This document shows positions 5,414-58,869 of a stretch of 64,000 bases of DNA, one piece after another (position 1 is the stretch's first letter; each line of letters begins with the position of its first letter). Below the pieces are notes generated by a model. The model searched no databases. It had not been told where the DNA came from and worked only from the letters and a program-made list of their open reading frames with translations. The translations under genes and the position numbers were made by a program. The DNA comes from Eledone cirrhosa (taxonomy: Eukaryota), in contig OZ024763.1 in assembly GCA_964016885.1 (NCBI GenBank), positions 4,402,001 to 4,466,000 of the forward strand, in the 5' to 3' direction.

Positions 5414-5837
5414 ATAATATAAGATCAAAAGATGGTTAAAGGAGTTCCATATATTTTATTATGCGCATTTCAAAAACAAACATCATCAAACAATAATATT
5501 TGTGTTTTCATCAGATAAAACAGGAGAACATGATATGAAGGCTAAAAAACACTTGTTGATAGTGCAGTTTTAAATCAACATATGTTGATTTAAAACTGCA
5601 CTATCAACAAGTGTTTTTTAGCCTTCATATCATGTTCTCCTGTTTTATCTGATGAAAACACAAATATTATTGTTTGATGATGTTTGTTTTTGAAATGCGC
5701 ATAATAAAATATATGGAACTCCTTTAACCATCTTTTGATCTTATATTATGTATACTCCAGTCCCACAAACTGTAGAGTGCTTCTTATCCGATATCTGCAT
5801 TGCTTTATTGTACTACAATAAAACTCACCTCCTACAT
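5414..5837 (+). mobile_element. Fold-back Penelope-like mini-element: perfect 336-bp palindrome (5414-5749) plus about 88-bp tail, in (TA)n
   Basis: 168-bp arms, no spacer, centre CAACAT/ATGTTG at 5581/5582. Confidence 0.85.
5643..5709 (+). ncRNA. Type-I hammerhead ribozyme motif (mirror copy on minus strand at 5454-5520)
   Basis: TTTTAT-CTGATGA-16-bp stem II with G-U pairs and GTTT loop-GAAA-TGCGCA-TA-ATAAAA. Confidence 0.88.
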
Positions 5838-5855
5838 TATATATATATATATATA

Positions 5856-6068
5856 GTAATAATAATAAATTTGAAGACTAAAATCCAAAGAGGGCTCGAT
5901 AAGGATAAATATATATCAAATATATAAGAACCGTAGAGCAAATATTTATTAAAATAACAGATTAAAGTTTAAGCAAAGAATCGCTGCTTTCACCCTTAAC
6001 TTCAGTAGATCTCGTTAAGGGTGAAATCAGCGATTCTTTGCTTAAACTTTAATCTGTTATTTTAATAA

Positions 6069-6072
<4 letters not shown>
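5856..6072 (-). mobile_element. Fold-back mini-element in (TA)n; unfolded relatives at about 8180-8255 and 30498-30562
   Basis: 59-bp arms 5942-6000 and 6014-6072, 13-nt spacer, tail 5856-5941. Confidence 0.8.
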
Positions 6073-8489: not shown

Positions 8490-8752
8490 ACCCCTGGTAG
8501 GCATTCTATAGATATCTCCATGTCACCTTGATCACTTTGACCGACCAGTCTGTCGTGCTGTTTTACCCATAAGATAACGCCATCCCCCTGGCTGGGCAGG
8601 CAGGCCGGTACTCATTTCTACAGCTGAGTAAACTGGAGCAACGTGAAATAAAGTGTCTTACTCAAGGAAACAACACATCAGCCGCTCCGAGAATTGAACT
8701 CACAACCTTTCGATTGCAAGGCCAATGCTCTAACCACTAAGCCATGCGCCTT
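8490..8752 (-). mobile_element. SINE family B-type copy
   Basis: Reverse complement of the same tRNA head and middle; related degenerate copies near 1505-1780, 8855-8930, 9125-9225 and 32840-33030. Confidence 0.8.
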
Positions 8753-19452: not shown

Positions 19453-19458
<6 letters not shown>

Positions 19459-19823
19459 AACAAAAGATGGTTAAATGAGTTCCATGTATTTTATTATGCG
19501 CATTTCAAAAACAAATATCATCATGCAATAACATTTGTGTTTTCATCAGATAAAATAGGAGGACATGATATGAAGGTTAAAAAACACTTGTGGATAGTGC
19601 AGTGTTTTTTAACCTTCATATCATGTCCTCCTATTTTATCTGATGAAAACAAATGTTATTGCATGATGATATTTGTTTTTGAAATGCGCATAGTAAAATA
19701 CATGGAACTCATTTAACCATCTTTTGATCTTATATATTATGTATACTCCAGTCCTACAAACTGTAGAGTGCTTCTTATCCGATATCTGCATTGCTTTATT
19801 GTACTACAATAAAACTCACCTCC

Positions 19824-19826
<3 letters not shown>
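19453..19826 (+). mobile_element. Second fold-back copy of the 5414 family
   Basis: About 135-bp arms, 12-nt spacer (19589-19600), same tail ending AAAACTCACCTCCTAC-(AT)n. Confidence 0.85.
19634..19698 (+). ncRNA. Type-I hammerhead ribozyme motif, same family as 5643
   Basis: TTTTAT-CTGATGA-stem II-GAAA-TGCGCA-TA-GTAAAA; differences from 5643 keep the pairing. Confidence 0.85.
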
Positions 19827-19888
<62 letters not shown>

Positions 19889-49666: not shown

Positions 49667-50725
49667 TCACACCTGATTGTTATTGCTGTAAGAATCGATT
49701 TTTTGTCTGAGTGGTAGGCCACTCTCATTTTCCGAATGCATGCACAGGCATGCGCAGTAAACATCAAAGAAAGTGTTCCTGAATTTCTGACTCATTGTAC
49801 AGTAGAGCACGAAGTTTATAGCATTGTTCACCAAAGCGATAATATCCATTAGGTCACCGAGAGGCACATAAATGTTCTCAAAGATGTTTGCCGTCGTTAT
49901 ACTCATTACGATTAATATACCCTGGGGCAATTCGGTGACAAGGAACAGAACAATTACCGTCAACAGCATTTTCGTTGTTCGAGAATGTTCTGAAAGTCGT
50001 GTACGATTGGCGCAGGAGATTTGCATCATTTGCTTCCGGCGGCGCGTCTTTTCGTGAATCTTATAGATGAGGAGACCACCAAATATGAAGATAAGCACAC
50101 AAGGTAGTAGCTTGCCTGTTATGGCGTAGAGCCAATAGCTGAGATATATTGTCGTCTGCGAGTCTGAATTAATCAGGCTAACGTCGTCAATCAGAAAAAC
50201 GGTTTGATTGTCGCGCGTCGGTTTCTCTACGATTTTCTTAGTTATAAAACTAGGTGTCATCATTACAATCGAAAAAAAGTATATACTCATTATGAAGATG
50301 CGGGACAGCTTCAGTCTGCGCAGTCGCACGTATTCGCCGCGGGCTGGAGATCTGAGATGAGCGTAACGTATAATGGCAAGGAGTACACACAACCACATGG
50401 ATATGGTGTGTGTTGTGTTGACGAAATTGGAGTGGAAAAGCATAAATATAGTCCAGCTTCTGTTGTTTTTGGTCGGTGTCACCCTCATTGGGTTGTTCAA
50501 GATATAAAAGTGTATGGCAAAGGGCAGATAGGAAACCATGGTGATCATGTCCGAAACGGCCAACCAGGTAAGGATGTTGTTGACCGGAGTTCGCATATTC
50601 TTGCGAGATAGAACAGTGATGTTGAATATGCTGGTAACAATACCGAACACACAGACGCATGTACTCAGGTAACCGTGAAAACCCGCATACCAAGTACCGA
50701 ACGTTAATAACGAAGATGACGCCAT
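49667..50725 (-). CDS. Rhodopsin-family neuropeptide GPCR, myosuppressin receptor / DMSR-1-like (sex-peptide-receptor-related group), single coding exon, 352 aa
   Basis: Seven hydrophobic segments; family motifs NNILTWLAVSD (TM2), HTISMWLCVLLAIIRY (TM3), RTTKMLLTVIVLFLVTELPQG (TM6), GDLMDIIALVNNAINFVLYCTMSQKFR (TM7/helix 8); CAAAATGG start context. Confidence 0.92.
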   Translation of the reverse strand: MASSSLLTFGTWYAGFHGYLSTCVCVFGIVTSIFNITVLSRKNMRTPVNNILTWLAVSDMITMVSYLPFAIHFYILNNPMRVTPTKNNRSWTIFMLFHSNFVNTTHTISMWLCVLLAIIRYAHLRSPARGEYVRLRRLKLSRIFIMSIYFFSIVMMTPSFITKKIVEKPTRDNQTVFLIDDVSLINSDSQTTIYLSYWLYAITGKLLPCVLIFIFGGLLIYKIHEKTRRRKQMMQISCANRTRLSEHSRTTKMLLTVIVLFLVTELPQGILIVMSITTANIFENIYVPLGDLMDIIALVNNAINFVLYCTMSQKFRNTFFDVYCACLCMHSENESGLPLRQKIDSYSNNNQV

Positions 50726-55850: not shown

Positions 55851-56872
55851 CTTCTCATTGTCATCGTTATCATCATCATTATCATCAACATAATTATCAT
55901 GATGACCATCACCACCGACATCATCTTTGGCTAAGTGACAATGTTTCTTGTTTTTCGTTTTTATTTTTCATGTGTGAAGATTACTTGCGTGATAATGAAT
56001 GTAACGGTTTGACCTGTGTCATATGAATTAGTCTGAATATTAATTTATTAATAATTACGTGTTAATTAACAAATAATGTTTACATTTAATCAGTAAATTG
56101 GTGTTTGATGTTAGTTAAAACAATACACAACACACATAATACATTTCTTGCTGTCACCCATGTCATGTGAAATCAATTTAAAACACACTTGGTGACCTTA
56201 CATTTGAATCGTTATCTTTTACTGGTTTCAGTTATTAGGCTGAGGCCATGTTGGAGCACCACATAGATTTAGACCATTATATCATTGGGTTTTCTTTTTT
56301 CTCGAATCGGTAAGCTGCAGACTATTTGTAAATACAAACACCGATGGTCGCGTGCACACACACACACATACATGAAAAATATGACTCTTCCAAAAGAAGA
56401 CCAGCAACAGCTAGGGTCTGACCCTGGGATTTGTTGATAGACATTGTAAAGCTGACATGATTCGGCGAATGGTTCATTGGTTGTCTGTTTCAAGTGCTCT
56501 TCTGGTCGCAGTACGTTCAGCATCTTGCCACCGTCGAATAGCAGATTCCACTGACGATTCGTTTGCCCGCCTTGTTCTTTTTCTTGCCGCTTTCGCAGTA
56601 TTTCGGCCAATGGAGTATCTCTTCCTTCGAAGCATGACCTAAAAGCAGGACGAAGTACACTAAGACTAACTGGTAGAGTAAGGAGTAAACTCGTCAGTGA
56701 TGCATGTGATTTCCGAACCGTTGACTATGTAATTGCTGGCCTTGTGCCAAAAGTAGTGGGACTTTTTGGGTGGCATATTGACAGTAACAATGACGATAAG
56801 CCGTCTGTGCTTTCGTGAAATAAATACGTTTGTTTATATTTTGTTTTTGTGTAAGCAAAAATATCTTTACAC

Positions 56873-56916
<44 letters not shown>

Positions 56917-56922
<6 letters not shown>

Positions 56923-57505
56923 GTTAAAAATGTACATCCACATATGTATACTGAAATACTAGTATGCATATGAATACACACACGTATACATATGTAGATG
57001 TACCGAGTTTTTCACTGGTCACTTTACTGTGAGTGTCCAGCTATTCTGTATGTAAACACACAGACAAACCGGTTTTTAGAGTCATACTGGTTTTTGAGGA
57101 AACACCTTTCCTCTATTCTCCAGAAAGCCAGACAAGGAATATTGAACTAGTTTCGATGTTGTTACATCTCATCAGCAATATTTACCTATCTTCCGGCCTC
57201 TCTAGAGAATCGTAAAAGCACATATCGTTATATGCTTTTTCTATGAAAATTAGTAGTGGGCAGACTAACTTGCATAGAGCATGAGTACGTACCGGTTCAA
57301 CGGAGACGATAAAAACAAATAACGAAACGAAATTAAATTTCGTTTCGTTTGTAACTCACTTTTGTATGACTGACGCTTAAACAATTAAGTTAAAAATGTA
57401 CATCCACATATGTATACTGAAATACTAGTATGCATATGAATACACACACGTATACATATGTAGATGTACCGAGTTTTTCACTGGTCACTTTACTGTGAGT
57501 GTCCA
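56917..57505 (-). mobile_element. Hammerhead-containing unit with 123-bp terminal direct repeats (pLTR/retrozyme-like)
   Basis: 56917-57039 identical to 57383-57505 (period 466 bp); abuts (TA)n; central hammerhead. Confidence 0.85.
57138..57182 (-). ncRNA. Canonical minimal type-I hammerhead ribozyme motif
   Basis: Minus strand AATATTG-CTGATGA-GATGT aaca ACATC-GAAA-CTAG-TT-CAATATT; all three stems pair perfectly. Confidence 0.9.
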
Positions 57506-58768
57506 TCAACAGATATCACACCTTCCCCCCACCATCAACAGATATCACACCTTCCCCCAACCATCAACAGATATCACACCTTCCCCCCACCATCAACAGA
57601 TATCACACCTTCCCCCAACCATCAACAGATATCACACCTTCCCCCACCATCAACGGATATCACACCTTCCCCCCACCATCAACGGATATCACACCTTCCC
57701 CCCCACCATCAACAGATATCACACCTTCCCCCACCATCAACAGATATCACACCTTCCTCCCACCATCAACGGATATCACACCTTCCCCCCCACCATCAAC
57801 AGATATCACACCTTCCCCTCACCTTCAACAGATATCACCCCCCCCCACCATAAACGGATATCACACCTTCCCCCACCATCAACAGATATCACACCTTCCC
57901 CCCAACCATCAACAGATATCACACCTTCCCCCACCATCAACAGATATCACACCTTCCTCCCACCATCAACGGATATCACACCTTCCCCCACCATCAACGG
58001 ATATCACACCTTCCCCCCACCATCAACGGATATCACACCTTCCCCCCCACCATCAACGGATATCACACTTTCCCCCCCACCATCAACGGATATCACACCT
58101 TCCCCCCACCATCAACAGATATCACACCTTCCCTCACCATCAACAGATATCACACCTTCCCCCACCATCAACAGATATCACACCTTCCCCCACCATCAAC
58201 AGATATCACACCTTCCCCCCACCATCAACGGATATCACACCTTCCCCCCAACCATCAACAGATATCACACCTTCCCCCAACCATCAACGGATATCACACC
58301 TTCCCCCCACCATCAACGGATATCACACCTTCCCCCTCCACCATCAACAGATATCACACCTTCCCCCCACCATCAACAGATATCACACCTTCCCCCCACC
58401 ATCAACAGATATCACACCTTCCCCCCAACCATCAACAGATATCACACCTTCCCCCAACCATCAACAGATATCACACCTTCCCCCCAACCATCAACAGATA
58501 TCACACCTTCCCCCCAACCATCAACAGATATCACACCTTCCCCCCAACCATCAACAGATATCACACCTTCCCCCAACCATCAACAGATATCACACCTTCC
58601 CCCACCATCAACGGATATCACACCTTCCCCCCACCATCAACAGATATCACACCTTCCCCTCACCTTCAACAGATATCACACCTTCCCCCCACCATCAACA
58701 GATATCACACCTTCCCTCACCTTCAACAGATATCACCCCCCCCCCCCCCACCATCAACGGATATCACC
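57503..58768. repeat. 28-31-bp minisatellite CCATCAACRGATATCACACCTT(C)nA
   Basis: Tandem array with a variable C run. Confidence 0.95.
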
Positions 58769-58869
58769 CATGATTATCAAGTTATCTCAGTTTCAGACAA
58801 TATTTCATCTACTCCAGATTATCTTTGCTGCTTTGGTTGTCAGTTTTATGAAACAATTTACCCCTACTT

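Follow-up and report, generated by a model that had tools for sequence, protein, structure and literature searches.

The locus considered here raises the question of how a short hammerhead-bearing repeat came to lie in the Eledone cirrhosa genome, which enzyme placed it there and from what kind of RNA it was copied. It was found in a 64,000-nucleotide stretch of contig OZ024763.1 (positions 4,402,001 to 4,466,000, forward strand), referred to below as the window. The preferred answer, to which a probability of roughly 0.7 is assigned, is that the element belongs to a non-coding hammerhead family with a 466-nt unit (a non-LTR retrozyme), as a copy with one arm, truncated at its 5' end, and that a Penelope-like element (PLE) supplied the enzyme which put it into (TA)n while copying a small circular RNA. 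The sequences themselves show the family and its pair of fixed ends, the arrangement in two arms, arrays that are homogeneous, a bias towards A>G and conservation of the ribozyme. Units are numbered on the minus strand, with u1 at 57382 and u466 at 56917, and the features on which the argument relies are the following:

56917..57505, minus strand: whole insertion (L001), 1.26 units in a single 5'-truncated arm, reading u344-u466 and then u1-u466.
56917..57382, minus strand: complete 466-nt unit, u1-u466, with the main fixed end u466 at 56917, assigned by its match to the family end beside (TA)n.
57383..57505, minus strand: partial second pass, u344-u466, equal to 56917-57039 by sequence identity; a pseudo-LTR of incidental length.
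57135..57187, minus strand: canonical metazoan type I hammerhead, with the core CUGAUGA at 57175-57169, identified by the core, Rfam HH9 and stem covariation.
57309..57382, minus strand: the "tail", u1-u74, the stretch between the two fixed ends as mapped, with a 13-bp hairpin at 57349-57321; internal in the window copy.
56932..57003, minus strand: long hairpin in the predicted fold, u380-u451, stopping 15 nt short of the main end and repeated at 57398-57469.
57268..57275, minus strand: octamer-like motif conserved with sister families; the window copy carries a rare A>G at 57269 (u114).
56875..56916, no strand: (AT)n microsatellite that was likely targeted at the 3' end, given that nearly all mapped family ends adjoin (TA)n.
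57503..58770, no strand: host minisatellite with a period of about 29 bp, outside the element (from sequence, repeat family D2).

The two copies of the short repeat, 56917-57039 and 57383-57505, agree at 123/123 nt with an offset of 466 nt, exactly as the original prediction had described, and the match is extensible on neither side. The term "terminal repeats" used there cannot be kept: the 123 nt mark the point where a second pass along the unit stopped, their length is incidental, and the 5' ends of other copies are scattered. The placement of the minus-strand 3' end beside (TA)n was correct, position 56917 directly adjoining the (AT)n run at 56875-56916. On the opposite side, the 5' end meets the 29-bp minisatellite via three shared bases (57503-57505). 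The (TA)n target is present, the inverted arm is absent and no target-site duplication is visible around the window copy, which consists of a single u466 arm 589 nt long.

The sequence is far from unique. The first genome search, in which 40 of 204 candidates were scored, gave 134 matches, nearly all 94-100% identical, and other loci are 99-100% identical to the window copy, in keeping with the recent insertion that had been proposed. Genome-wide the family exceeds 5,000 units: 5,179 were counted by four 23-mer patterns over the octamer, which is intact in 5,073 units. A single-copy sequence duplicated locally, named beforehand as the refuting case, was not what was found; the insertions are dispersed, near-identical and have fixed ends. 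Together with the type I hammerhead of intact core in each unit, this multi-copy mobile family bears out the classification as a retrozyme. Tandem arrays reach about 31 units in one arm, true LTRs are lacking, and the length of the repeat changes with 5' truncation. The unit has 466 nt and 36% G+C, its internal open reading frames encode at most 60 amino acids, and folded as a circle it has a predicted energy of -156.7 kcal/mol (z -13 against 40 shuffles). Neither a Pol III A or B box nor a poly(A) signal was found on the sense strand; a bacterial promoter scan stayed at chance level and is not relevant. Judging from its sequence, the octamer may possibly be a promoter element inside the unit. 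A relaxed pattern detected 14,129 further hammerhead cores in the genome that belong to sister families with the same helix III, and these align over most of the unit. At L082:1890-2460 and in L137-L166, sister retrozymes were observed whose period is about 422-537 nt and whose ends are arranged in the same way.

The hammerhead lies on the minus strand, with a bulged stem I of 7 bp and a stem II of 5 bp closed by the loop AACA. These two stems agree with the original prediction; its word "textbook" goes too far, as helix III is a single A-U pair closed by the palindromic loop CUAG and the cleavage triplet is GUU. The predicted cut falls at 57145/57144, after u238. The motif is positioned outside the 123-nt repeat and is of type I, not a type III ribozyme within fixed LTRs. 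Rfam model HH9 matches 57122-57193 with 36.5 bits (E 1.8e-7; gathering score 52), and no ribozyme is returned for the window at the gathering threshold. MicroRNA matches at the level of Rfam E-values were dismissed, since they reflect the AT-rich hairpin. The exact 30-nt hammerhead core occurs 2,603 times in the genome, compared with 0 occurrences of the reversed control. Across 13 haplotypes of the 466-nt family and its sister families, 97% of stem cells are paired and six pairs are compensated, a covariation signal that mostly represents one split between two families. Because of the 2,603 versus 0 occurrences and the six stem pairs changed on both sides, the hammerhead is not a product of chance. 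The best predicted monomer fold pairs the CUG of the core with the bases or loop of helix III; a helix III of one base pair with a palindromic loop is, according to the available text of PMC4209133, typical for animal hammerheads and a form that works in dimers. None of 152 propagated changes on the tree falls in the 11 core bases, where 3.6 are expected (p about 0.03); the test is weak, and 19 of the 94 loci had been found through the exact core pattern. The spared core bases suggest, weakly, that cleavage matters for spread.

The window copy contains only one hammerhead and counts as a monomer. In the available text of 10.64898/2026.07.22.740005, an active retrozyme copy is defined by at least two tandem hammerheads; many other loci of the 466-nt family qualify, and the window copy lies below this number. 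With a single hammerhead, it cannot release a unit-length circle, and multimeric arrays at other loci would be the source of circles instead. Given one hammerhead and the altered octamer, the copy is likely an inert dead end. The octamer variant was also considered as a mark of dead ends only, a role that is not shown, as L043-L046 carry it plus a second A>G in common. By itself, the window locus is an ordinary dead-end copy.

The ends of family members were mapped at 94 loci in three rounds, 74 of which had not been selected for the second end. Among these 74, 57 are resolved two-armed loci, 14 are one-armed and 3 could not be resolved. In the two-armed loci, two tandem arms meet head to head, the 3' end of each facing outward into (TA)n, and in 51 of the 57 one arm ends at u466 (+0-4) and the other at u71-75 (26/28, 14/16 and 11/13 resolved two-armed loci in the successive rounds). 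One of the remaining loci is 466/466, none is 74/74 and five are irregular. A further set, L167-L186, had been selected from both end lists and is excluded from the 51/57; there, 19 of 20 loci are 466/74 and one is 466/466. The family therefore possesses two fixed ends, separated by 74 nt and found at (TA)n in nearly every case, neither of which is the cleavage site. On the forward strand, 725 ends of the u466 kind and 1,077 of the second kind adjoin (TA)n; reverse-strand counts are inflated by a gap, and the forward counts imply some 1,500-2,200 ends of each kind. The expectation of one fixed 3' end with variable 5' extent was thus half right: the 5' ends are indeed scattered (95 ends), and the fixed 3' ends are two. 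A reading with u466 as the sole fixed end was dropped. As a separate observation, the insertion in L048 (G000:C2:340267500-340273500) lies outside (TA)n and shows, by eye, an apparent 13-bp target duplication.

This layout is readily compared with that of PLEs. In the available text of PMC8557442, PLEs are described with partial tandems, a truncated copy in inverted orientation and a tail confined to one end, and in that of PMC11167929 a PLE protein in vitro cuts and extends both strands, with cDNA starting at two internal sites that bound the tail. The end layout of the retrozyme corresponds to the tail and inverted layout of the former and to the two internal reverse transcription starts of the latter. 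The genome itself contains many reverse transcriptase (RT) plus GIY-YIG frames (PF01541 was used for the profile search), and an autonomous RT + GIY-YIG element at L076, L080 and L082 likewise has two ends at (TA)n, each belonging to a different arm and lying 63-68 nt from the other. Its family carries a C-x4-C-x2-C linker, of the Neptune or Nematis type by the available text of PMC8557442. On the basis of these sequence features, the 466-nt family is very likely mobilised by a PLE. For the cognate element, no similarity to the unit was detected in 36 GIY-YIG loci (from 150 scored of 10,596 candidates), a sample too small to exclude one; the only matches there are AT-rich stretches, one short insertion of the 466-nt family and one sister-family insertion. 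No PLE reading frame occurs within the unit or attached to the retrozyme loci tested, up to L166, and the candidate explanation of the 466-nt element as an autonomous PLE was rejected, there being no RT + GIY-YIG frame in either place.

Some individual loci are worth recording beside this comparison. At L166:1147-1825, a sister-retrozyme arm stands head to head with the pseudo-LTR arm of an autonomous PLE, without (TA)n in between. It is possibly a chimeric insertion; this is a single case, in which both arms end at tail sites. L071 (G000:C1:145868500-145877000) is a near-complete PLE with a 938-codon open frame between pseudo-LTRs, and its hammerhead, read by eye, is apparently the U3-A8 core variant of PMC4209133 (available text).

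The nature of the template was approached through the arms and through the changes they carry. Most arrays are homogeneous over both arms. In 28 of 45 records with at least three long units, no variant is common to a subset of units, and in the other 17 variants are common to some units only. Block duplications occur in long arrays (L117/L118, L134, L202); together with the subset variants, they indicate that arrays also grow at the DNA level. A variant present in every unit of both arms implies that one RNA unit was read repeatedly, for which a circle is the simplest explanation. In L031 two haplotypes alternate in both arms, with 5 of 7 differences being A>G, a pattern that an edited dimer circle would yield.

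Array-wide changes are biased in direction. In the first 35 loci, private array-wide changes comprise 15 A>G versus 3 T>C out of 27, read on the ribozyme strand. The second sample alone lacks this excess, with 7 A>G versus 8 T>C, and 4 versus 2 without two divergent loci (L122 and L132 being dropped in the stated variants of this test); the pooled strict test gives 11 versus 8, and in one variant 10 versus 3 (p 0.052). On a tree of 76 of the 94 loci, which counts recurrent changes too and leaves out 18 loci with too little multi-unit cover, terminal array-wide changes amount to 41 A>G versus 12 T>C of 83 (p 2.6e-5), and to 34 versus 12 (p 6e-4) without u114. No bias is seen on internal branches (16 A>G versus 15 T>C) or among single-unit changes (24 versus 22 of 233, with clustered single-unit differences dropped, namely 40 in the first set, 78 in the second and 100 in the tree; 33 versus 30 with them). 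Individual loci hold clusters of A>G changes, as in L050 with five in a single hairpin; sites of A>G fixed in arrays lie within u31-49, u108-117, u184-204 and u341-374. The 5'-neighbour preference of ADAR was not significant (25/34, p 0.18).

The change at u114 that marks the window copy is an example of the same kind. Genome-wide it is found in 106 units, the window copy being one of these, which are spread over 33 loci (17 multi-unit), and it accounts for 1.8% and 2.2% of units in two subfamily backgrounds; the control T>C changes at u115 and u109 occur in 4 and 3 units/loci, all single. This position was chosen after the fact, and its 33 loci need not be independent. Strand-specific A>G changes point to adenosine deamination in RNA, as carried out by ADAR. 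As judged from the sequences, the array-wide A>G changes favour repeated copying of one edited RNA monomer, which was likely a circle.

Several alternatives were weighed. Tandem duplication on the spot, a satellite of the ordinary kind or a pseudo-LTR left behind by an autonomous PLE would fit a copy that has no target-site duplication and sits amid simple repeats, and retrozymes can be homologous to PLE pseudo-LTRs (10.64898/2026.07.22.740005, available text). Local duplication is refuted, and a satellite opposed, by the near-identical dispersed insertions with fixed ends; a remnant is opposed by the mapped surroundings, as upstream of the units in all 94 mapped loci lies another unit, an inversion or flanking DNA, and the loci tested have no attached PLE frame. 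Explanations of this group are very improbable. As for linear templates, a cut monomer read once is excluded for the longer arms, including the 589-nt window copy, because arms cross the cleavage site freely and end elsewhere. The same cut monomer with the reverse transcriptase jumping repeatedly from the 5' end to the 3' end of one molecule would account equally well for homogeneity, array-wide editing and selection on the core. Such jumps would be expected to leave scars, yet 387 crossings of the cleavage site contain 2 indels within u234-243 against 4.5 expected, and no pile-up of 5' ends is seen there (3 of 95 within 5 nt, 2.2 expected). Jumps between different molecules would mix subfamilies within arrays, and such mixing is rare. 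A jumping enzyme is accordingly rated improbable.

Less easily set aside, and still unlikely, is the same PLE-mobilised retrozyme copied from uncut linear multimer transcripts, with arrays homogenised or expanded later as DNA. A PLE uses uncut RNA in vitro and has no need for ribozyme cleavage (PMC11167929, available text), block duplications do exist in long arrays, and the tree includes 76 of some 2,000 insertions, so that "private" variants may stem from unsampled donors. In a multimer, however, editing would hit units independently, yet the single-unit changes stand at 24 versus 22 and the array-wide ones are biased on both inverted arms. Moreover, neighbouring T>C changes never spread over an array, and the catalytic core is spared among propagated changes. 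From the sequence data, a circular RNA is the likely template. The two options offered originally, reverse transcription of a circular RNA or a tandem pseudo-LTR, are both retained in altered form, as they turn out to be one thing: the partial tandem is a PLE-type pseudo-LTR that likely arose by reverse transcription past one unit. Two of four runs examined, X5 and X6, labelled as other organisms (kind of record unstated), each hold a single contig, of 495 and 496 nt, equal to the unit plus 30; such contigs are expected from a tandem array and from a circle alike, and each shows sense-strand A>G differences from the window.

Under the preferred reading of a PLE enzyme copying a circle, tandem donor arrays would be transcribed, possibly from an octamer-containing promoter within the unit. 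Pairs of hammerheads would excise unit RNAs, which a host ligase would close into circles, and ADAR would edit some adenosines of the highly paired RNA. The PLE protein would then nick both (TA)n strands, with cDNA starting at the internal sites u466 and u74; each reverse transcriptase would make a variable number of turns on the circle, and both 5' ends would be joined head to head. In the window copy, the u466 arm alone is present; it would have run for 589 nt and been joined to the minisatellite. A bolder version takes the insertions as a fossil record of rolling-circle retrotransposition, in which two PLE reverse transcriptases round one ADAR-edited circle, sometimes a dimer, from both sides of the break, and editing, written into the germ line, contributes more new heritable change to the family than any other single source. 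This version is held at even odds. Should the preferred reading hold, it would mean that a circular RNA serves as a retrotransposition template in an animal and that RNA editing enters the genome. The family yields direct predictions, with two exact start sites and candidate intact PLE proteins in the same genome, and array-wide A>G is a natural marker telling a circular monomer from a linear multimer.

Among known systems, the element joins the metazoan non-LTR retrozymes as a new member. It shares with them, as presented in the available text of PMC7229834 and 10.64898/2026.07.22.740005, the non-coding, low-GC tandem unit with one type I hammerhead each, copies from monomers to multimers, strong self-pairing and PLEs in the same genome, and like them it shows no primer-binding site (PBS), polypurine tract (PPT) or true LTR. 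Its 466 nt are slightly above the range of 150-450 bp given in PMC7229834. The two-armed inverted arrays, two fixed ends and A>G scars are features of this family, with no description in the available text of the two papers. No retrozyme with editing scars or two-armed arrays came up in a literature search whose coverage leaves out most subscription journals. Circles and cleavage are demonstrated for metazoan retrozymes and predicted for the 466-nt family; in the available text of 10.64898/2026.07.22.740005, cleavage failed in 8 of 9 dimers of predicted Xenopus retrozymes. The same source gives a homologous PLE pseudo-LTR for 24 of 57 Xenopus retrozyme families, compared with none for the 466-nt unit in the 36 GIY-YIG loci. 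Animal retrozymes have been proposed to move as RNA circles with the help of PLEs, with co-occurrence and homology as the sole support given in the available text (PMC7229834; 10.64898/2026.07.22.740005).

With endonuclease-bearing PLEs, as far as the available text of PMC8557442, PMC11167929 and PMC4209133 describes them, the family has in common the partial tandems, the inverted 5'-truncated copy, the one-ended tail, the targeting of microsatellites, a repeat that contains a hammerhead, and reverse transcription starting at two internal sites. Unlike PLEs, it has no reading frame, its hammerhead is canonical rather than minimal, and its arms reach many units; the tail is about 74 nt, compared with the usual 30-40 in PLEs and 63-68 in the local one. 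The satellite 2 retrozymes of newt and axolotl (PMC7229834, available text) resemble it in the 1-bp helix III with a palindromic tetraloop, in a ribozyme expected to work best as a dimer and in the tandem units, and differ in sequence, host and unit length (330-350 nt versus 466 nt). Plant LTR retrozymes, as described in the papers cited above, are likewise non-autonomous hammerhead retroelements with a circular RNA, here a probable one; their hammerheads, of type III, sit within true LTRs, and they have PBS, PPT and 4-bp duplications, in contrast to the type I hammerhead outside the 123-nt repeat. Newt and axolotl satellite 2 has a snRNA-type promoter. An octamer promoter element, here predicted from sequence, is possibly a further trait in common with it.

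Several other features were observed in the window. An exon-like stretch with a pyrimidine-rich AG upstream lies at 56383-56637 on the minus strand, which is also that of the element, at a distance of 280 nt downstream; no Pfam match and no relatives were found for it, and an intronic location of the element is not supported. The tRNA-like match at 8679-8751 (minus strand) contains many broken pairs and probably represents a tRNA-derived SINE head. A second hammerhead family has two insertions, at about 5418-5838 and 19456-19828, each an inverted pair in (TA)n of which one arm bears a tail of about 88 nt; the motif of this family also occurs near the GIY-YIG loci L076 and L083. A head-to-head palindrome ending in (TA)n at about 5960-6070 is probably the 3' end of a further PLE-type family. 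Finally, a single-exon frame for a seven-transmembrane receptor occupies 49667-50725 on the minus strand (Pfam 7TM_GPCR_Srw, E 3.5e-34).
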